Assembly: GCA_012338575.1 (NCBI GenBank)
Contig: GCA_012338575.1_3616.1
Origin: a phage
Length of the DNA: 64,000 nt
Strand: one strand, 5' to 3'
Shown here: positions 3,797 to 40,153 of the stretch, one piece after another
Layout: each line of letters opens with the position of its first letter
Numbering within the stretch: the first letter of the stretch is position 1
The notes under the pieces: model-generated
Database searches by the model: none
What the model saw: the letters and a program-made list of their open reading frames with translations, nothing else
What the model was told of the DNA's origin: nothing
Translations under genes and position numbers: made by a program

Positions 3797-4168
3797 ATGG
3801 AATTTATTATTTTGGCCGTATTAGTTGCCTTGTTTAACGCCTGGATCGCTGGCAAGATGGGTAGATCCGCCTTTTTATGGTTTATTATATCTATTTTCCT
3901 GGGGGTGGTTGCAACTATTGTACTTGTTATCCTTGCAATTGTTGACAAAGGCGATAATAGAAAGGGTAAAGTATTTTCCGACCTGTATGACGCGCAAACA
4001 TTTGTCAACGCCTATTATAGTGATCTTCCAGTCTCCCTACGCTGCAGCCTTGCACAACAGGTTTTCGATGAAGCTAAAACCAGAGATCACGCCCATGAGA
4101 TTTGTTTAACTGAGGCGGATCGCCTATTTGAGAGGAATAGAAAATATGTGGGCCAGCCGTTTAAATAA
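3797..4168 (+). CDS. membrane protein (two predicted TM helices at N-terminus)
   Basis: ATG 3797 after AAAGAGG; MEFIILAVLVALFNAWIAG... hydrophobic. Confidence 0.5.
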   Translation: MEFIILAVLVALFNAWIAGKMGRSAFLWFIISIFLGVVATIVLVILAIVDKGDNRKGKVFSDLYDAQTFVNAYYSDLPVSLRCSLAQQVFDEAKTRDHAHEICLTEADRLFERNRKYVGQPFK

Positions 4169-4391
4169 TACCACGTTAATTAATCCCTTTGATGAAGATT
4201 TGAAGCCAGCCGCCTGGCGTGATGGATTCAATAACGAACGCTTTATTTTCAGGCCTGATCTTAAGGAATTTTGTAACAATGGATCGAACAACGACAGAGA
4301 TAATTTTTCTTGTGATGTGCGTGGTGATGGTACTCCTGGGGGCCATTGTAAACCACGTCACTACTACCAGGATGAAAGGGGGAGACGATGA
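4146..4391 (+). CDS. hypothetical protein (about 82 aa)
   Basis: ATG 4146 after GAGAGGAA; overlaps upstream stop. Confidence 0.4.
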   Translation: MWASRLNNTTLINPFDEDLKPAAWRDGFNNERFIFRPDLKEFCNNGSNNDRDNFSCDVRGDGTPGGHCKPRHYYQDERGRR

Positions 4392-4507
4392 CAACCAAGG
4401 ATAAGCCCCGCACCGATAAGGTGCGCCGGGTTATGGTATGGCTTGAGATCATCGCCCTTGAAATATTGTTAGGCGTAGGGATGTATTTTATCGCTGTAAG
4501 TAACTGA
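4388..4507 (+). CDS. small membrane protein (39 aa)
   Basis: ATG 4388 after GGGGGAGACG, ATGA-type overlap with upstream gene; not in ORF track. Confidence 0.4.
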   Translation: MTTKDKPRTDKVRRVMVWLEIIALEILLGVGMYFIAVSN

Positions 4508-4648
4508 TAACGGCCCCCGATCCCTGGGGTCCTAACTTTTTCAAAAAATTTTTCTTCCGGGGTGTTGCAATCCGGTCCGAAATATGGATAATAATAATCA
4601 ACGGGGAGCTAATCCCCACCAACACAAAAACCAGAAAGGAGAAACAAA

Positions 4649-4849
4649 ATGAGCAACAATATCCGCGTTATTAACTTCAAAAAAGAAGAAAAAATTGCCG
4701 TGCTGATTGACGGTCAAGAAATCTTCAAGGGCTATTATGAAGATCATCAAACTGCGATTAGTATCACTCGCGTGATCGGTTACCATAATTTCTACCCCCA
4801 AGGCGCTGAGGCAGCAGTAAAACGAATCAAAGAGATTGTAGGCCTGTAA
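4649..4849 (+). CDS. hypothetical early protein (66 aa)
   Basis: SD AGAAAGGAG; preceded by promoter-like TTGCAA..ATATGGATAATAA and leader hairpin GGGGAGCTAATCCCC. Confidence 0.55.
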   Translation: MSNNIRVINFKKEEKIAVLIDGQEIFKGYYEDHQTAISITRVIGYHNFYPQGAEAAVKRIKEIVGL

Positions 4850-4860
4850 AATTTATTTTT

Positions 4861-4905
4861 AGATGGCCTTGACTCCAGGGCCATCAATAAAGTAAATTTA
4901 AACCC
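4861..4905. repeat. conserved 44-bp intergenic element copy 4
   Basis: TTTATTTTTAGATGGCCTTGACTCCAGGGCCATCAATAAAGTAAA. Confidence 0.7.
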
Positions 4906-4942
4906 TGTTAAAATACCACGCAGTTAACAAGGAGTGATAGAC

Positions 4943-5242
4943 ATGTTTATCCAGGCTAATAATCTTTATTTCTTTGATGGTCAGATCGTAGATGGTGTGG
5001 AAGTGGAGATCACCGGGTGCCCTGGCGGTCAGGCTATGACTTTTCGGAATAATGCCTTTAATGATTCTCATATCGTTATGAGAATGGAAGTTACGAAGCT
5101 GGATGACAAGAAAACACTTATTGACTATTCTGTGAAAGATCATCCAGACTACCACATGATCTATGGTGATTTGTGCATTGTTGACCGTGACAAGGTGAGC
5201 GGCATTGTGATCGCTATTGTGAACGATGTTTTCTCAAACTAA
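4943..5242 (+). CDS. hypothetical early protein (99 aa)
   Basis: ATG 4943 after AAGGAG. Confidence 0.55.
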   Translation: MFIQANNLYFFDGQIVDGVEVEITGCPGGQAMTFRNNAFNDSHIVMRMEVTKLDDKKTLIDYSVKDHPDYHMIYGDLCIVDRDKVSGIVIAIVNDVFSN

Positions 5243-5259
5243 TTTCAACAGGTGATTTT

Positions 5260-5610
5260 ATGAAAGTTAAATTATATTACCTTAATGAGCTTAACCCCCT
5301 TGCCCAGGTCCGCGCCCTAGCTAATACCTTGATTTGTGAGAAATCTGTATATTGTGTTGAGCTTAACGCTATGCGTGAACGTCTCAAAGGTGGTTACTTT
5401 AATATCCATGCTGCAATCAACGGCCTGAATATGGAATTTATCCGTTTACGTAACAGCCGCCGGAATCTGGCAAGAATGGAACAAGATCCGGCCCACCTTC
5501 GTAAGCTGGTTATTGAAAATCATCTGATGTTTAATGCCGAGGGTGATTATTACCATTTTCACCGCAAACGCTGGTACCGTGGCGGCAATACAGGCAAGAA
5601 TGCAAAATAA
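5260..5610 (+). CDS. hypothetical early protein (116 aa)
   Basis: ORF with SD AGGTGA. Confidence 0.5.
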   Translation: MKVKLYYLNELNPLAQVRALANTLICEKSVYCVELNAMRERLKGGYFNIHAAINGLNMEFIRLRNSRRNLARMEQDPAHLRKLVIENHLMFNAEGDYYHFHRKRWYRGGNTGKNAK

Positions 5611-33195: not shown

Positions 33196-35511
33196 TTACA
33201 GTGCACAGCTTTCGCAATACGGATCTTCAACTGAACTATCTGCAATCAAAGGATAGTTCTTTCTGGTTTCATCTTCAGCTTGTTTCTTGGCATGAAGTTC
33301 CTCTGCCAAGGAGTCACCAGCACCAACTCTGGAGTTTAAATAATACCATGTCTTCATCCCGAATTTAGTGGCACGGATAAGGTACCCTAGCTGCTCCTTC
33401 ATTGAAATTTTACCATCTTTCAACTTGGTGTAGTCTATGTATAAATCCGCGCTGATTGCCTGGCCTGTGAATTTTTGAATCACAGCGTACATATCGATCA
33501 TATCGTTAGTATCAACGTCCCAAGCCGAAGTGTAATACTCTTTCAGCTCATCGTATTCAGGAACGATAAACAGCACCTGCCCTTGTGGCGATTTTTTAAA
33601 GATAATGTGCTCACGGACAGGATAAACCCCGTTAGTGGTGTTTGTTGCCAGCGAAGAGCTTTCATTAGGCATATATGCTTCAAGAACGCTATTACGTAGC
33701 CCACCGTTTTCAATGATTTCTTTACGTAACCCTTCCCAATCCTGTTTAAGAGAAGGATCTTTCACCACGCTATCGACCTCTTTGTTATAGGTGTCGATTG
33801 GTAACCAACCTTCTGGATATTTTGTTTTATGCATCCACTCGCAGACACCACGCTCTTTTGCCAACCGTAAACTTGCCTTATGCAAGCTGTAGCTGTGAAG
33901 TTCTGCAAGATCGTGAACAAGCTGTTTACTTTCAGGAGATCCGTAAGTAATCTTGTGGCTGGCAATAAAATGTGCAACGTTGGTAAGGCCAACCCCGATG
34001 GATCTGCGTTTTTTAACAGTGCTCTCCATATTTTCATACGGATATGTCATGATTTCCATAACATTGTCAATCATAAGCACCGTGTAGTATGCAACATCCT
34101 CATACTCTTCTGGAGTAACCCTTCCAGCTACAAGGGATGACAGGAAGCACAATGCAACTTCGCCGTCATCAACATCGTGCTTGAAGATATTACGCATATC
34201 TGAATAGCCTTTTGTCGGGAGGGCTATTTCTGCACACAGGTTACTTGAATAGATCACATCTTTAAAAGGTGTATGTCTATTCATCTCGTCTGTCCAGTAT
34301 ACGTACAGCCTTCCAACCTCAGTACGCTGCGTGATCAGCTCAACAGCAAGATCTCTAGCTCGGATCCATGTTTTAGGAATACTATCATCTTTAGCTATAC
34401 GATCAACCTCTGCATCAAACTCCTCCATAGACATGGTGAAGATACCTTCATGCAGTTGAGGCGCGTGCTTATAAGAAACAAGCATCCAATCTAAATTCTT
34501 AGCCACACGGTTGATAAACGACCTATTAATACCTATAGAGTAGTCCATGGTGTTGATTCTTTTTGAAGCAACAGTCATAGGGTTTCTCAAACGGATTAGC
34601 TCATCAATCTGCGGGTCTAGTGCAAGAAATGATACTGTTGCAGAACCGCCACGTGATTGTTGTCTGTTCTCCTTAACCCCAGCATCAATACCTCGATAAT
34701 ATGGAATCTTACCCATATGTTTAATAGTGTTACCACGAACACCATCGCCTGCAGATCTTGATGATAAATAGTAGCCGATACCTGCTTGGTTAACCGTCAT
34801 TGTGTACGCAACTTCACGTGCCACACCAATAGATTTTGCTGTATCGTCAGCTTTTATTACACAACAAGATGCATACCCTGTCTTACCTGTGCGCAGCCCG
34901 TTTAAGTACGGTGTCGGGGCATTGATCTTTAAGTCGGACAGATAAGTGTATAATTTTACAACATCGTTGATACGACGTTCTTTCGGCATATTCTTCATGA
35001 CAGCCATTGCTATCCCCATAAACATCATCTGAGGAGATTCAAACAAGGTGTCTTTAAGAGTATCCTTGATCCCGTATTTGTCGCGAAACTGTTTAAGGAC
35101 TGCATAGCCATAACCGAGATCTTTACTGTGATCAATAACAGTGCCTAAAGTGTTTAACTCGGTAAAGCTATAACCCATATCCTCCCAATACCCTTTCTCA
35201 ACCATGTCGTTGTAAAATGATGGTAAGGAAGGGATCTTTGTAAACCCTCCAAAAGCCTCTTTATAAATCTGACCAATAAGAACACGACCAGCCATACGGG
35301 AATGTGCTTCGTCTTTACGGCTAACACAGGAGTCTATAATAGCTTGGTTAACTTCTTTGGTTGTACATCCATCATACAGTCGTTTGTATGCATCCAGTGC
35401 AATATGTGACCAATTGCCGTTACCGTCGTCACCGAAAATAGCTGCCTTATTTAAACGTTCTGGATCGAATGCCACTTCACATCCGTTACTTTTAATTACC
35501 TTGGTGATCAA
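33196..35511 (-). CDS. nrdA: ribonucleotide reductase class Ia alpha subunit
   Basis: 771 aa; N-terminal ATP-cone (VIKSNGCEVAFDPERL); catalytic NLCAEIALPT motif. Confidence 0.85.
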   Translation of the reverse strand: MITKVIKSNGCEVAFDPERLNKAAIFGDDGNGNWSHIALDAYKRLYDGCTTKEVNQAIIDSCVSRKDEAHSRMAGRVLIGQIYKEAFGGFTKIPSLPSFYNDMVEKGYWEDMGYSFTELNTLGTVIDHSKDLGYGYAVLKQFRDKYGIKDTLKDTLFESPQMMFMGIAMAVMKNMPKERRINDVVKLYTYLSDLKINAPTPYLNGLRTGKTGYASCCVIKADDTAKSIGVAREVAYTMTVNQAGIGYYLSSRSAGDGVRGNTIKHMGKIPYYRGIDAGVKENRQQSRGGSATVSFLALDPQIDELIRLRNPMTVASKRINTMDYSIGINRSFINRVAKNLDWMLVSYKHAPQLHEGIFTMSMEEFDAEVDRIAKDDSIPKTWIRARDLAVELITQRTEVGRLYVYWTDEMNRHTPFKDVIYSSNLCAEIALPTKGYSDMRNIFKHDVDDGEVALCFLSSLVAGRVTPEEYEDVAYYTVLMIDNVMEIMTYPYENMESTVKKRRSIGVGLTNVAHFIASHKITYGSPESKQLVHDLAELHSYSLHKASLRLAKERGVCEWMHKTKYPEGWLPIDTYNKEVDSVVKDPSLKQDWEGLRKEIIENGGLRNSVLEAYMPNESSSLATNTTNGVYPVREHIIFKKSPQGQVLFIVPEYDELKEYYTSAWDVDTNDMIDMYAVIQKFTGQAISADLYIDYTKLKDGKISMKEQLGYLIRATKFGMKTWYYLNSRVGAGDSLAEELHAKKQAEDETRKNYPLIADSSVEDPYCESCAL

Positions 35512-35738
35512 TTTGCTTCCTCCACTTCATTAACGTATTTATCAAGGCAGGTATCAGTATCTTGCTGGATAAAGGTATCCTCTTCTACAGAGATATTTAT
35601 AATTTTACCTGTATACTCGTCATAATAAACATCATCATACATTTTAATATCGTTTGTCAGACCGTTGAACCAAAGCCAACCAACATATTCTGCCCGACTT
35701 GCAAAACCAAGATCCTTCCACTTGGAGTTATGACTCAT
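35508..35738 (-). CDS. hypothetical protein (about 76 aa) coupled to nrdA
   Basis: Internal ATG after AAGGTGG; stop overlaps nrdA ATG. Confidence 0.45.
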   Translation of the reverse strand: MSHNSKWKDLGFASRAEYVGWLWFNGLTNDIKMYDDVYYDEYTGKIINISVEEDTFIQQDTDTCLDKYVNEVEEAN

Positions 35739-35748
35739 CTTCACCACC

Positions 35749-36249
35749 TTAGCTTTCAATACCGAATAATTTTTCCAGGCGATGCAGATCTTCAAAATTG
35801 AAAGGTTCATCAACAATATGAATATCTTCAGCCTTTTCAGATTGTTTTGTATACTTTCTTACATTAACACGATCCTCTACAGGGATATCATACGGAAGAT
35901 CTTGAACAAGCATTGCCTCACCGGGTGCTTTATCTACATCTAAAATATCTACACCGTTATACATTTGTGGGTATCTAAAGTCTGCACGCATGACACCAGC
36001 AAATACATCTGCCTTTCGATAATGTGTTGGCTTATTTCTGCATCGAACGTTTTTTCCACGAAGAACATCAATACTTTTTAAATCAAACCCTACGGCAAAG
36101 AGTGCAGCTCGGAGACCGTTTCGTGTGCGAACGTTAAACCCGGGAACGGTAGATAGGAAATCTAAAGTAACTGAAATAAATGTCTTTTTAGGAATCATAA
36201 CATTACTCATATCTGTCTCCATTTCTGGCTCACCAACAAAGTGAGCCAT
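35749..36249 (-). CDS. hypothetical protein (166 aa) in nucleotide-metabolism operon
   Basis: ORF; no family recognised. Confidence 0.45.
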   Translation of the reverse strand: MAHFVGEPEMETDMSNVMIPKKTFISVTLDFLSTVPGFNVRTRNGLRAALFAVGFDLKSIDVLRGKNVRCRNKPTHYRKADVFAGVMRADFRYPQMYNGVDILDVDKAPGEAMLVQDLPYDIPVEDRVNVRKYTKQSEKAEDIHIVDEPFNFEDLHRLEKLFGIES

Positions 36250-36308
36250 TATTATAGATTATCTGATAGTATTAGTCAACACAGAAGTTACCTATCGCTG
36301 TGATAGGA

Positions 36309-37292
36309 TTAACCTTTCACGAAGTGGTTATTAAGCAGTTGTCTGTGCTGAACCCACCCACAAAAGTTGGCAGACCAGAATTTACCATCACGGTCTTGAT
36401 GGGTTACACCTTCCTGCCAAACACAGCTGTCTTGTGTGATTTCACATGAAGATAGATAGTAGTTTAAACGTTCCATTGCGTTATCGTGATCCATAGGTGT
36501 TGCCTGGTGCTCGTAAGGGCTTGCATGAATACGATCCCCACCAATCAATTTTTTAGCCACACTGTCTGCCTTTTCAAACGTGCTGTCAATATTTCGATAA
36601 GATACTTGTGCACAGCAACTAGCACTGATAGACAGAGCTTCTTTAGTATCGAGGATGCAGAGCTTTCCTTCTGTGTCACGTACAGCGTAGTTAAACTCTC
36701 CGTCCAAATAAACGTGCTCTACATATGGGGTGTGCCATTGACCCGGTTTAAGGATCTCAGAGGTGCTATTCACAAGAGCTTCCCACATGCAATTAGCCAA
36801 CATCTGAATCGTAGGATCCGCATCGTGCCAGCAACGGAGGTGGAAAAAATTATTCCACTCGGTGCTTGTTACAACTGTTTTCATGCGTTGAAAAGGCTCC
36901 ACTAAGCGGTTACATACTTGCTTATGGTAACCAGCAAGGGCGAACTTCTCTGCATGCCAAGCGGCGTTTTTTGCAGCTTCTTTCCAAAATTCTTCAGGAG
37001 TTAACTCCATGTCAGTGTACTCTACACGGATCTTTTGATCGTGTTCCCCACCATCTTCCATCCCTCGCTTATTTGCACCGAAGCGAACTGGCATTGCAGG
37101 ATTCTCCACAATCTGTTGCAGCATCTTGCCGACAGGAACTGCACGGGAAGACATGGCGTTTCGGCTGAATACTCGATGCGTCATAAGCTCTGAGTGAATA
37201 ATTCGAGGATACTCTAGCTCAAAAGTGGTGATGCGCTTACCTTTCTCGGAAATGCTGTCAGCAATGATCTTTGCAGTGCACAGTTTTAGCAT
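36309..37292 (-). CDS. putative flavin-dependent thymidylate synthase (ThyX-like, divergent)
   Basis: ELMTHRVFSRNAMSSRA resembles ThyX RHRx7S signature but with T in first position; 327 aa is longer than typical ThyX. Confidence 0.4.
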   Translation of the reverse strand: MLKLCTAKIIADSISEKGKRITTFELEYPRIIHSELMTHRVFSRNAMSSRAVPVGKMLQQIVENPAMPVRFGANKRGMEDGGEHDQKIRVEYTDMELTPEEFWKEAAKNAAWHAEKFALAGYHKQVCNRLVEPFQRMKTVVTSTEWNNFFHLRCWHDADPTIQMLANCMWEALVNSTSEILKPGQWHTPYVEHVYLDGEFNYAVRDTEGKLCILDTKEALSISASCCAQVSYRNIDSTFEKADSVAKKLIGGDRIHASPYEHQATPMDHDNAMERLNYYLSSCEITQDSCVWQEGVTHQDRDGKFWSANFCGWVQHRQLLNNHFVKG

Positions 37293-37492
37293 TATTTAGC
37301 TCTCCTTGTTTTAATTTTGGAAATTTCGTCTGGGTTTATGTTGGCCTTAAATGCAAGGTATCTGTTGAACATATCGGAGCACATGTCTTGGGTGATCCTG
37401 GAGGCATACACCAGCTTACCTCCCAGATCATACACCTCTAGCCAGTCACCGTATCTGACTACAGGATCGCCACCTTTAGAACATCTGCCCAT
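37292..37492 (-). CDS. hypothetical protein (66 aa)
   Basis: ORF; stop overlaps downstream start. Confidence 0.45.
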   Translation of the reverse strand: MGRCSKGGDPVVRYGDWLEVYDLGGKLVYASRITQDMCSDMFNRYLAFKANINPDEISKIKTRRAK

Positions 37493-37493
37493 T

Positions 37494-38087
37494 TCAAATA
37501 CCTTCTAAAAACTTTCCTATTTTATACCAGCTGTTAGCGGTATAGTCAACACTGACCTTTAACTCCTCGAATTGCTCATAAGGCGTATCTTTTAGGATTT
37601 TAATAACTTCAGGTCGTGAAGCGAATTGGTTCAGGTATTCATGCCTGTCGTCAATTATAACATCTACAGCCACATTTCCTTTGAAATGTGTGGCGTAGAA
37701 GCCGTGACCCTGGGTGTGATCGTCCAGATCCATAAAATCACTGGTCCAACGCTTTAAGAACCTTGATTTAGATGCAAGGTGACCTTTCTTGCATACCGAG
37801 ATAAATGCAAGCTTGTGACCACGAGCCACCAAATCTTTCATAACCTCAATAGCCCCCTCTTCGGGCTTAAGAAAGTCGTAGAGGAACGGGTCACTCCAGA
37901 AATCAAAAGGCCCTATGATGTTTTCTTTGGGGCGATCAGGCCAATACTTTGACAGATCGTAATACATTAACCCATTAGAAGGTTTAGCGACTGTCTTACT
38001 GGCTGGACCATACAAACGCTCCAACCACTCCCACCATGCTGTTCCTGAGTCTACCAGTGTCAGATCTACATCAATTCCGATTAACAT
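37494..38087 (-). CDS. HAD-superfamily phosphatase (possible 5'(3')-deoxyribonucleotidase)
   Basis: N-terminal IGIDVDLTLVDSG matches HAD motif I (DxDxT). Confidence 0.45.
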   Translation of the reverse strand: MLIGIDVDLTLVDSGTAWWEWLERLYGPASKTVAKPSNGLMYYDLSKYWPDRPKENIIGPFDFWSDPFLYDFLKPEEGAIEVMKDLVARGHKLAFISVCKKGHLASKSRFLKRWTSDFMDLDDHTQGHGFYATHFKGNVAVDVIIDDRHEYLNQFASRPEVIKILKDTPYEQFEELKVSVDYTANSWYKIGKFLEGI

Positions 38088-38698
38088 TCTTCTTGGGCCT
38101 CTTTAGCATCAATATACTTGCACACAATCTCCGATGCACACTCCCAAGGTGCACCTTCAGGGTTTACAACATCAAACTCAACCCCTTTTATTCCGTTATT
38201 TTCCAGACTTAGATAGGTTCTGGAATCATTTCCCCAGTCATATCCGACACGGTGAATACGGAACAACAACAGATCTCCACCTGTGCTGTATGCGTACTCA
38301 CTAAGGCATGCCAGCTCCTCTTTGAATCCACCATCGGAGTAAACAACAACCCCTTTACCTTTAGGGAAATCTTTCTTCAAGGATGTGACTGCGGCCTTAC
38401 CGAAAGCATCTTCACCAAAGATAGGTTTAATCAGATTTTCACTACAATGGATCATCCATTCTCGCGGAGAAACATGCTTGCCGTCTATCATTAAGAAAGG
38501 GCAAGGATCTTCTTTGTAGTGGCGGTCATAAAGTGCATTCCAGAGTTGAGGAGTTACACCAGCTGCCTTAATTGCCACACTGAAGAGCATCTCCTTAACC
38601 TCACGGTGGTGTGAGTTAGGAATAGCTTCCAACAAGAGATCTGCAATGTGGTCCTTACCACTGCTTGGTGGGGCGTTAAGAACAATAATATCCATCAA
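38081..38698 (-). CDS. deoxynucleoside monophosphate kinase-like P-loop protein
   Basis: IIVLNAPPSSGKDHIADLL resembles recalled T4 gp1 IFLSGVKRSGKDTTADFI. Confidence 0.5.
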   Translation of the reverse strand: MMDIIVLNAPPSSGKDHIADLLLEAIPNSHHREVKEMLFSVAIKAAGVTPQLWNALYDRHYKEDPCPFLMIDGKHVSPREWMIHCSENLIKPIFGEDAFGKAAVTSLKKDFPKGKGVVVYSDGGFKEELACLSEYAYSTGGDLLLFRIHRVGYDWGNDSRTYLSLENNGIKGVEFDVVNPEGAPWECASEIVCKYIDAKEAQEEC

Positions 38699-38898
38699 AA
38701 ACCTCCGTGGTATTCTTCAACTGCATCAATAATACTTTTACACTTATCTACCAGCTCGTTAGCCACTACAGCATCGTCTTCCCAAACAGCCTCTTCAATC
38801 TGATCAAGCAATGATCGCATTTTATCCATCATTTCTGGGATAAAGTTTTCTGAAAAGCTGTCTGGAACTGTTAACTTTAGTGTCATTGCGGTCTCCAA
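38695..38898 (-). CDS. hypothetical acidic protein (67 aa)
   Basis: ORF. Confidence 0.4.
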   Translation of the reverse strand: METAMTLKLTVPDSFSENFIPEMMDKMRSLLDQIEEAVWEDDAVVANELVDKCKSIIDAVEEYHGGF

Positions 38899-38913: not shown

Positions 38914-39372
38914 TTAGAAGTTTGTTTTTACACGTCCCTTTTCATCTACCTCATTGTTAGCTAAAAGCGTTACAAAGTCTGTGAAACGGACATGAAGAAC
39001 TCTTTTCTTGTCAAGGTATCCTAAAGCCACCCCTGAAAAATTTAGCATCAAGGGGGCTAAAGAAGCTCTAGCACTGAAATGCTGTTGTTCTACTCTTCCA
39101 ACACCTTTAGTGTAGGATGGGTTAAGATTGTAAGTTCTGAATCCCAGTTTTGTTGGAGCTTTAGAATTAAAAACAACTTTATAGCGTTTCTTACTCAACT
39201 TATGCTCCAGGATAATAATTCCCTTATCACCCTTGATAAGTTGAAAATCTGTAAAGTGCTCTTTTAAGACGAAAGGTAGTGCCAGTCCCATAGCCTGGCC
39301 TCTTTGTACCGCTGTCTCACCAAAAGCTTTTGCATCAGTAAGTTCTTTGGTCAAGTCTATGCTTTTGATCAT
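38914..39372 (-). CDS. hypothetical protein (152 aa; start uncertain)
   Basis: ORF overlapping 3' end of upstream methyltransferase gene. Confidence 0.4.
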   Translation of the reverse strand: MIKSIDLTKELTDAKAFGETAVQRGQAMGLALPFVLKEHFTDFQLIKGDKGIIILEHKLSKKRYKVVFNSKAPTKLGFRTYNLNPSYTKGVGRVEQQHFSARASLAPLMLNFSGVALGYLDKKRVLHVRFTDFVTLLANNEVDEKGRVKTNF

Positions 39373-40153
39373 ACCGGGTCTCCAAAATGTATTGTAGTTC
39401 TTTCTTGCCTATACTCTTCATTCCAGCAGTCTTACCTGCTTCTTCTTGAAAAGAAGAATAGCATTCAGCAAACACTCTGTCAACACCGTCAACTAAAGAT
39501 TTTATGAAATATGTAGATTCTTCAGATTTTGGATCATCATCACCCAATACTTTTCCAGCGTTATACCCAACACGTCTTACACAGAAGTCGTAGTCATCCG
39601 GTGTGCTAAAAGAAAATAACTTATTCTCTCCAATATCTACAGGATCCCTATTGCACTCCTTCTTCTCCCAAATTTGGAAAACACATGGCACGTCATAAGG
39701 TTTGCCATTAAGTAAAAACGAGTTCTTAGGGCACCTTTCGCTGTAGACAAGGTGCATAGACATGTCCAGTTTGTTTGAAAAAAATATTTTTTCAAATGTC
39801 CGTGGCAAGATGAAGGCTATAGCCCCGCCAAGCTCTAGCAATGATGCACAATGGTTAAAGAATTTGCAAGCTAAAGATGAATTCTTACCAAACGGTGGGT
39901 TACCTATGAAGACATCTGCCTTGGGGTGCACCTCCAAGAAGTTTGCCTGGATGCACGGTGTTGGTCCTTCAAATTCAGGATCTGGTACTAAATCGTACGA
40001 CAGTATCTCTGAAAATAGTTTTGAAAAAGAACCTCTTCCAGCAGAAGGCTCAACGTATGCACAATTCCCATACTTATCTTTTACTTTACCAACAAGATAT
40101 TCTGCATACTCAGGGTTTGTGTAATATTTGTCGTTGGACTCTTTCTTACTCAA
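39335..40153 (-). CDS. DNA adenine methyltransferase (gamma-class-like, NPPF motif)
   Basis: SAM-binding EPSAGRGSF and catalytic VFIGNPPFG motifs. Confidence 0.65.
   Translation of the reverse strand: MSKKESNDKYYTNPEYAEYLVGKVKDKYGNCAYVEPSAGRGSFSKLFSEILSYDLVPDPEFEGPTPCIQANFLEVHPKADVFIGNPPFGKNSSLACKFFNHCASLLELGGAIAFILPRTFEKIFFSNKLDMSMHLVYSERCPKNSFLLNGKPYDVPCVFQIWEKKECNRDPVDIGENKLFSFSTPDDYDFCVRRVGYNAGKVLGDDDPKSEESTYFIKSLVDGVDRVFAECYSSFQEEAGKTAGMKSIGKKELQYILETRYDQKHRLDQRTY

Follow-up and report, generated by a model that had tools for sequence, protein, structure and literature searches.

Introduction

Thymidylate synthases of the ThyX type yield tetrahydrofolate rather than dihydrofolate. They are an antibiotic target as well as a model for flavin-mediated methyl transfer, and their mechanism has been argued from the arginines of the RHR motif, from R174 and from Y91 (Thermotoga maritima numbering, abbreviated Tm below). 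In the canonical chain, the first strands are followed by helices alpha1 and alpha2 with the HxxPFEH motif, then by strand beta3 with the RHR loop and last by the helix that bears R174. Here, we describe a relative from a stretch of phage DNA of 64,000 nucleotides (GenBank assembly GCA_012338575.1, contig GCA_012338575.1_3616.1), referred to as the window. The gene lies on the minus strand (36309..37292), starts with ATG and encodes 327 amino acids plus a stop, as established from the list of open reading frames (ORFs), Pfam and PHROG; it is the orthologue of the gene for gp106 in phage rV5 (rV5 genome paper). In our assessment, it is probably the phage's own flavin-dependent thymidylate synthase, with the ThyX fold built from a chain of rearranged order.

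The ligand contacts of canonical ThyX provide the frame for this comparison. The RHR motif forms hydrogen bonds with the phosphates and the ribityl chain of flavin adenine dinucleotide (FAD), and its first Arg also touches the isoalloxazine ring and deoxyuridine monophosphate (dUMP) (PMC6514825). In the Mycobacterium tuberculosis enzyme (Mtb), contacts to the FAD phosphates come from Ser71 and Arg190 (the equivalents of Tm T55 and R165), and R87, S105, R107 and R199 hold dUMP (PMC6514825). Tyr108 (Tm Y91) acts as a lid over the uracil C5 and the flavin N5 (PMC6514825). Canonical ThyX is a homotetramer in which three subunits contribute to each active site.

Family Placement and Fold

Thy1/ThyX was the sole family matched by the window protein in Pfam, NCBIfam and PHROG. 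No unrelated family appeared, in agreement with an earlier note on this DNA that had recognized a ThyX-like protein in the sequence. The Pfam model PF02511 (Thy1; gathering cut-off 24.8 bits) scored 35.2 bits (E 1.4e-8), aligning residues 23-173 only with positions 60-185 of the 191 in the profile, and PHROG 85 ("thymidylate synthase") matched with an E-value of 9e-111. A single-sequence phmmer search against the PDB sequences gave no match, and a profile of the family was needed to obtain PDB matches. The AlphaFold2 single-chain model of the protein had a predicted local distance difference test score (pLDDT) of 95.3 and a predicted template modelling score (pTM) of 0.92, and the first 50 PDB matches that Foldseek returned for it were all ThyX, with probability 1.00. 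These sequential alignments were partial, covering 154-224 columns with template modelling (TM) scores of 0.34-0.56 on the target, as expected if the chain order is non-colinear. Given the Thy1 placement, the functional divergent thymidylate synthase proposed in the earlier note is the best-supported function; its readings of the altered signature and of the length need correction.

A Rearranged Chain

The core of the protein (residues 21-181; 36750..37232, minus strand) extends from beta3 to the R174 helix and is colinear with approximately residues 60-200 of canonical ThyX according to Pfam, hhalign and the pieces matched by profile in the PDB. With hhalign, residues 57-202 of the canonical ThyX of Rheinheimera phage Barba5A were paired with 21-174 of the window family in its native order. 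The elements that precede this core in canonical ThyX, namely alpha1-alpha2 and HxS/TPFEH (Tm approximately 20-59), are located by the family profile at residues 215-263 (36504..36650, minus strand). In the comparison of the family profile with T. maritima ThyX, three pieces align out of order: positions 24-52 with chain residues 74-102 (beta3 and the RHR loop), 129-173 with 167-211 (the R174 helices), and 214-256 with 32-72 (alpha1-alpha2 and HETPFEH). The AlphaFold2 model has helices at 216-232, 239-250 and 258-262, in agreement with the expected places of alpha1, alpha2 and the PFEH turn. Ahead of the core, residues 1-20 (37233..37292, minus strand) hold an N-terminal beta strand according to the secondary structure of the model (6-15).

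The chain was then re-ordered in silico by placing residues 182-263 ahead of 21-181 and rescored. For the window protein, the Pfam Thy1 score rose from 35.2 to 52.6 bits, in one alignment over profile positions 15-185. Scores likewise rose from 40.9 to 59.5 bits for the homologue of phage ICP1, from 30.3 to 49.1 bits for that of Erwinia phage Ea9-2 and from 47.0 to 60.9 bits for that of Rheinheimera phage Barba8S; coverage extended to profile positions 15-185 or 15-190 in three of these four members, and to 49-190 only in Barba8S. With TIGR02170, the window protein went from 37.2 to 54.7 bits (still below the 87.9-bit trusted cut-off), ICP1 from 40.2 to 59.1 bits and Barba8S from 38.0 to 52.9 bits. 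Control constructs of the window protein scored 35.9 bits (native, trimmed), 34.2 bits (module reversed), 34.1 bits (module shuffled) and 34.7 bits (tail in place of the module) with Pfam Thy1. Neither ICP1 (reversed 40.0, shuffled 40.6 bits) nor Barba8S (reversed 47.3 bits) gained over native in such controls. Thy1 thus recognizes the module only when it is joined to the core in canonical order.

Comparisons at the level of profiles gave the same picture. A family profile built from 25 re-ordered members and run against the PDB improved the matches to five ThyX species, with E-values moving from 2.7e-6 to 8e-12 (48 bits) for T. maritima, from 1.3e-3 to 6.8e-8 for 6j61, from 0.012 to 5.6e-7 for Helicobacter pylori (3ah5) and from 0.0048 to 3.8e-5 for PBCV-1 (2cfa). 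The T. maritima match included one 32-bit stretch that crosses the artificial junction. When gp004, the Barba5A ThyX, was compared by hhalign with the re-ordered profile, 171 columns aligned colinearly (E 3e-8, probability 95%), against 139 columns (E 1.7e-6) with the native one.

Alternatively, no rearrangement may have taken place, and the protein would consist of a core that lacks the N-terminal helices plus an unrelated C-terminal domain, with the likeness of the module owed to chance or convergence. The module match to T. maritima ThyX is indeed weak on its own (8.9 bits, independent E-value 6.3), Pfam Thy1 does not recognize the last 145 residues by themselves even at E<=10, and the partial Foldseek alignments also suit this account. 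However, two independently curated profiles gain 13-19 bits, and only if the module, in its true orientation, is put ahead of the core. The gain is seen in four members, 43-54% identical to the window protein, and disappears with reversed, shuffled or substitute segments. Furthermore, H-x-S/T-P-F/Y-E-H and A-x-V-S-F/Y occur in the correct order and spacing with alpha1 and alpha2 predicted, and the re-ordered profile betters the matches to the five PDB species. We regard an unrelated C-terminal domain as very unlikely.

The rearranged order may represent a strict circular permutation or the translocation of one module. Residues 1-20 were considered as the equivalent of Thy1 profile positions 1-14, but a construct of N-terminus, module and core still aligned from position 15-16 and scored 52.7 versus 52.6 bits. 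A tandem duplication was also considered as the origin, with the GWxQHRQ of the tail as the relic of a second RHR motif. The hhalign probability was below 1% in all comparisons (tail with N-terminus, tail with core, C-terminal half with core, and the N-terminal 22 residues with the beta insert described below), and no duplication relic was detectable by this method.

The displaced module also bears on the length of the protein. The earlier note had put it at about 100 residues above typical ThyX; relative to solved ThyX chains (216-270 residues, tags included), it is about 60-110 residues longer, but this is no simple extension, with a canonical module displaced to 215-263. The extra length arises because the module comes with a beta insert before it and a 64-residue tail after it. 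The insert (residues 182-214; 36651..36749, minus strand), defined from AlphaFold2 strands at 192-196, 199-205 and 211-214 and from conservation, carries a GxWHxPY motif (H187, P189) that is invariant in the family alignment. It is not aligned by the Thy1 profile, and no counterpart was detected in canonical ThyX. The tail (residues 264-327; 36312..36503, minus strand) was delimited by conservation and ends in NFxGWxQxRQ, with N309 and Q315 conserved and R317 invariant. Like the insert, the tail is specific to the family and had no detectable counterpart in canonical ThyX, and neither had one elsewhere in the window protein detectable by hhalign.

Altered Signature and Active-Site Residues

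Aligned by profile with T. maritima ThyX, residues 35-51 (ELMTHRVFSRNAMSSRA; 37140..37190, minus strand) form the altered ThyX signature. The THR-x7-S that the earlier note had reported in place of RHR-x7-S is exact: T38-H39-R40 fall on Tm R78-H79-R80, and S48 and R50 on S88 and R90. Within the same loop, S43, N45 and A51 correspond to S83, N85 and Y91, and R30, eight residues ahead of T38, occupies the position of the dUMP-binding Arg87 of Mtb ThyX. In an alignment of 74 family representatives, 37-52% identical to the window protein, T38 is found in 69 (otherwise Lys in three and Arg in two); THR is therefore a family-wide signature rather than the oddity of one gene. The strict RHRX7S signature is absent, with its His, spacing and Ser retained.

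The remaining motifs could be placed on the canonical enzyme in a similar manner. NRLVEP (residues 128-133; 36894..36911, minus strand) is paired by hhalign, as NRLxEP, with the canonical "ARLVLP", which puts R129 in the place of the dUMP-phosphate Arg, Tm R147 ("ARIVLP"). TEWNNFFHLR (residues 144-153; 36834..36863, minus strand) aligns as "aTewdNffwLR" with "ARSLMNFLNLR", placing T144 on R165 (FAD phosphate), N148 on N169 and R153 on the uracil-activating R174. In the relocated module, the flavin/folate-side motif HASPYEH (residues 256-262; 36507..36527, minus strand) matches by profile alignment, with H256, S258, E261 and H262 on Tm H53, T55, E58 and H59.

Conservation is unevenly distributed over these positions. 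The dUMP set is kept (R30 in 72 of 74, S48 in 73, and R50, R129 and R153 in all 74), as are, on the flavin side, H39 (74/74), N148 (74/74) and, in the relocated motif, H256 (74/74), S258 (70/74) and E261 (70/74), together with S43 (67/74), N45 (69/74) and H262 (73/74). The lid Tyr (Tm Y91, Mtb Y108) is replaced by A51 in 74 of 74 and the second FAD-phosphate Arg (Tm R165, Mtb R190) by T144 in 73. Among the flavin contacts at aligned positions, H39, H256 and S258 are retained, R78 and R165 have become T38 and T144, and R40 varies. As read from this alignment, the long family retains the full dUMP set and the flavin-side His/Ser/Glu motif, and has replaced the two flavin-phosphate arginines and the lid Tyr in a conserved manner.

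On this basis, the enzyme would convert dUMP to deoxythymidine monophosphate (dTMP), using methylene-tetrahydrofolate, a reduced flavin and NAD(P)H. By analogy with canonical ThyX, dUMP would stack on the reduced flavin, which would relay the methylene group from methylene-tetrahydrofolate. S48, R50, R30 and R129 are predicted to hold the nucleotide, and R153 to activate the uracil. The roles of R78, R165 and Y91 could be taken over by the family-specific invariant K124, H187 and R317 and by the G77-M78 loop. Since RHR is relaxed and R165 is lost, the flavin may be held differently, or may be flavin mononucleotide (FMN).

Several points weigh against a working ThyX of rearranged order. Three residues held to be important in canonical ThyX are missing (the first Arg of RHR, the FAD-phosphate Arg165/Mtb Arg190 and the lid Tyr), and R40 is present in only 57 of 74 sequences (77%). 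The TIGR02170 (thyX) match (E 2.2e-9, 37.2 bits) lies well under the 87.9-bit equivalog cut-off. The predicted canonical position of the relocated module in three dimensions is based on sequence and secondary structure. In addition, for no member of the family did the open-access literature yield an enzymatic, genetic or structural test.

The lost residues and the low equivalog score could also mark a catalytically dead or repurposed relative, for example a regulator that binds nucleotides or one subunit of a complex for nucleotide synthesis. Nevertheless, the remaining dUMP and flavin residues are at least 92% conserved across the 74 sequences, and the conservation of the replacements themselves suggests co-adaptation more than decay. 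In the family, inteins occupy six sites within these motifs, and the long form substitutes for a canonical ThyX at one locus; both are described below. We thus give a dead or repurposed protein hardly any credence.

Gene Neighborhood, Locus Exchange and Inteins

The gene lies among genes of nucleotide metabolism on the same strand. On one side are nrdD, nrdG, a glutaredoxin gene, nrdB and nrdA, the last of which (33196..35511, minus strand) encodes the large subunit of a class I ribonucleotide reductase according to the annotation of relatives. On the other side is a gene for a 197-residue protein resembling NT5C-family 5'-deoxyribonucleotidases (37494..38087, minus strand; PF06941, 27.1 bits with a cut-off of 24.8; "deoxyribonucleotidase" in Escherichia phage A6-1), followed by one for a 205-residue P-loop protein resembling deoxynucleoside monophosphate (dNMP) kinases (38081..38698, minus strand; PHROG 139, E 4.8e-44). 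In CarlMeissner, a complete and fully annotated close relative, the long ThyX is the only thymidylate synthase, and tblastn found no ThyA, FolA or Dut in its genome. A tblastn search with Escherichia coli ThyA gave nothing at E<=0.5 in the window and nothing at E<=1 in the complete relative, and no FolA homologue was found in the window by tblastn. In other phage groups, the long family co-occurs with a dCTP or dCMP deaminase and ribonucleotide reductase.

The most telling evidence on function is a natural exchange among the Rheinheimera barba phages. In most isolates, a canonical ThyX of 222 amino acids stands between glutaredoxin and ribonucleotide reductase. In Barba5S and Barba8S, the same slot holds a 303-residue long form and two small ORFs, with flanks that are 98.9% identical (Barba8S 3980-5331 compared with Barba5A 1779-2447). 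The canonical Barba5A copy reads KHK...SRRY instead of RHR...SxRY. On the evidence of this sequence, strict RHR is not universal even among phage ThyX of canonical order.

Homologues of 520-680 residues might suggest tandem or fused ThyX but contain inteins instead. These are of the HNH or LAGLIDADG kind and occur at six insertion points (in P0125, P0133, P0140, P0145, P0153, P0156, P0179, P0203, P0214, P0217, P0224, P0228, P0235 and P0255). In the numbering of the window protein, four points directly follow H33, R40, residue 42 and S48, a fifth lies near R153-H156, and the sixth separates H256 from S257; all six are within conserved motifs, those of the core and of the relocated module alike. 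Inteins usually behave in this way toward the active-site motifs of indispensable enzymes, and six independent sites are unusually many for a protein of approximately 320 residues.

The neighborhood also bears on what the enzyme makes. With chemistry of the ThyX type, a different C5 product could be formed, such as 5-hydroxymethyl-dUMP through attack of water on the exocyclic methylene intermediate, and this could feed a modified base into the phage DNA. Phages with 5-hydroxymethyluracil, such as SPO1, carry a set of hydroxymethylase, dTMPase and kinase that resembles the trio of thyX-like gene, nucleotidase and kinase. The presence of a deoxypyrimidine 5'-nucleotidase of the NT5C type and a dNMP kinase as neighbors would suit this possibility, and the Tyr that in canonical ThyX keeps solvent away from uracil C5 and flavin N5 is an invariant Ala here. 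Conversely, neither a dUTPase nor an inhibitor of the host thymidylate synthase is annotated, and at one locus the long form and a canonical ThyX with the Tyr retained (SRRY) can stand in for each other. The family moreover occurs in over 1000 phage records from widely differing groups; to our knowledge, thymine replacement has not been reported in rV5-like, ICP1, Pakpunavirus, N4-like or phiCbK-like phages.

Restriction data bear on the same question. In the BASEL study, Vequintavirinae and their relatives were exceptionally susceptible to restriction-modification systems of types I-III (BASEL study). Such sensitivity argues against a protective replacement of thymine, although it does not strictly exclude 5-hydroxymethyluracil. 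Ordinary synthesis of dTMP is favored by the neighborhood, the cassette exchange, the inteins in the motifs and the restriction sensitivity, and we consider a different C5 product unlikely. The pyrimidine-modifying enzyme that the earlier note had offered as its second option is disfavored by the restriction sensitivity and by the exchange with canonical ThyX in near-identical Rheinheimera phages.

Methyltransferases were noted in the same genomes. Several DNA methyltransferases are predicted in Vequintavirus genomes, and CarlMeissner has at least three of the N6-adenine and two of the C5-cytosine type. One predicted gene of this kind lies just upstream of the gene cluster in the window (39335-40153, minus strand). 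Despite being rich in methyltransferases, Vequintavirus is reported to be exceptionally sensitive to restriction-modification.

Breadth of the Family

The long family is not confined to relatives of the window phage. A tblastn search recovered 1036 phage records, 983 of which covered at least 80% of the query, from groups that include rV5-like, phi92-like, ICP1, Pakpunavirus, N4-like, phiCbK-like and Cellulophaga phiST phages. Among protein clusters at 90% identity, 7425 matched the long form at E<=1e-5; among representatives at 50% identity, 1863 matched at E<=1e-30 and 5002 at E<=1e-3, a part of which may be canonical ThyX sharing the core alone. It is conceivable, although we hold it rather doubtful, that the long form constitutes a widespread and almost wholly phage-borne class of ThyX with a circular-permutation-like chain that has given up the first signature Arg, the second FAD-phosphate Arg and the lid Tyr, in which the flavin may be held differently (for example as FMN, or loosely bound and exchangeable) and a more open active site may even let go of a product other than dTMP.

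Among viral models in BFVD, M4PRP2, A0A6H2AAE2, A0A7M1RZS2 and A0A8S5V7G6 are annotated as "thymidylate synthase" and measure 300-370 residues. They come from N4-like roseophages, Pseudomonas phage goonie and crAss-like phages, and their alignments with the window protein extend over no more than about 160-190 columns, with 12-17% identity. Other long or rearranged forms of ThyX, separate from the window family, may exist.

The Locus and Its Phage

The window derives from an rV5-like E. coli myovirus (Vequintavirus). Over a stretch of 3.2 kb around the gene (35500-38700), identity to Escherichia phage A6-1 is 99.3%, and 121 phage records reach 90% or more. Proteins 98-99.7% identical to the window protein carry a thymidylate synthase annotation in rV5-like phages, the names used for the gene in relatives being "thymidylate synthase", "FAD-dependent thymidylate synthase" and "ThyX". 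From the sequence, the start codon shares one base with the stop of a small upstream ORF (TAATG), and a strong Shine-Dalgarno sequence, AAGGAGA (37301..37307, minus strand), lies 8 nucleotides 5' of the ATG.

The gene belongs to a long block of minus-strand genes, and over the whole window the sign of the GC skew flips near 12-14 kb and near 50 kb, matching the switches between plus and minus gene blocks. A promoter-like site of the sigma-70 type, near consensus at 11 of 12 positions (TTGACT, 17 nucleotides, TATAAT; 36251-36279, minus strand), lies within the 59 bp that separate the stop of the thyX-like gene from the next ORF (35749-36249) and its start. Such sites are no commoner in the whole region than in shuffled sequence.

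Some database records of relatives call for comment. The orthologue of Escherichia phage vB_EcoM-ECP26 (ECP26) is deposited as two pieces, A0A4Y5TVX3 (245 residues) and A0A4Y5TVY4 (97 residues), which are 97% and 95% identical to the window protein (BFVD matches); the split, near the junction of core and relocated module, suggests a frameshift or a sequencing error. Nineteen unannotated "Campylobacter phage" records (host Campylobacter jejuni; e.g., MG065658, MG065661, MG065682, MG065652, MG065646 and MG065647) are 98-99% identical to the window phage, which most likely points to mislabelling or contamination of the deposits and not to genuine phages of Campylobacter. In the A6-1 record PQ510733 (5988-8566), product names appear displaced by one gene: a coding sequence (CDS) of 2124 bp is named "glutaredoxin 1" and one of 117 bp "anaerobic ribonucleoside-triphosphate reductase".

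Comparison With Known Systems

In the open-access literature, only routine annotations as "thymidylate synthase" or "thyX" were found for the family and no description of the rearranged order; subscription journals and structure-classification databases lay outside this scope. The gene is thus ordinary and already annotated, and its architecture and active-site substitutions are apparently undescribed. As equivalog models miss the long family, a large share of phage enzymes may be absent from phylogenies of ThyX and from tallies of viral thymidylate synthases. Motif filters that allow few deviations from RHRX7S might exclude it as well (as in PMC2826268). For phage biology, it matters that rV5-like, ICP1-like, Pakpunavirus and N4-like phages, among them several therapy candidates, have the long form as their only thymidylate synthase.

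The closest described systems are the canonical ThyX enzymes of T. maritima (TM0449), M. tuberculosis, H. pylori and PBCV-1 (A674R), with which the window protein shares a common fold family. The likeness comprises the x-H-R-x7-S-x-R loop, the Arg/Ser set for dUMP, N169, H53-x-T/S-P-F-E-H and the DAQxEI helix, as well as a genomic role beside ribonucleotide reductase genes. Unlike in these enzymes, the alpha1-alpha2-HxSPxEH module follows the core instead of preceding beta3, a 33-residue beta insert (GxWHxPY) and a 64-residue tail (QxR) are added, and Tm R78, R165 and Y91 are replaced by Thr, Thr and Ala. The family therefore departs from four hallmarks of canonical ThyX, namely the strict RHR, the lid Tyr, the colinear order and an equivalog-level score. 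A large natural family in which some residues are kept and others replaced on a re-wired chain amounts to a natural mutational experiment on which contacts are indispensable.

Barba5A gp004 (222 residues) offers the most direct comparison between the two forms. This phage ThyX of canonical topology occupies the slot that the long form takes in Barba8S and Barba5S; its chain order and length are canonical, the lid Tyr is retained, and it is colinear with the long family only after the latter is re-ordered in silico. A more distant counterpart is the pair of ThyA and dihydrofolate reductase (DHFR) (T4 td/frd; E. coli ThyA/FolA), which gives the same net product, dTMP, and takes the same place in the nucleotide-metabolism clusters of phages. 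ThyA-type enzymes are unrelated in fold and chemistry to the ThyX type of the window protein, whose expected product tetrahydrofolate fits the absence of a phage DHFR.

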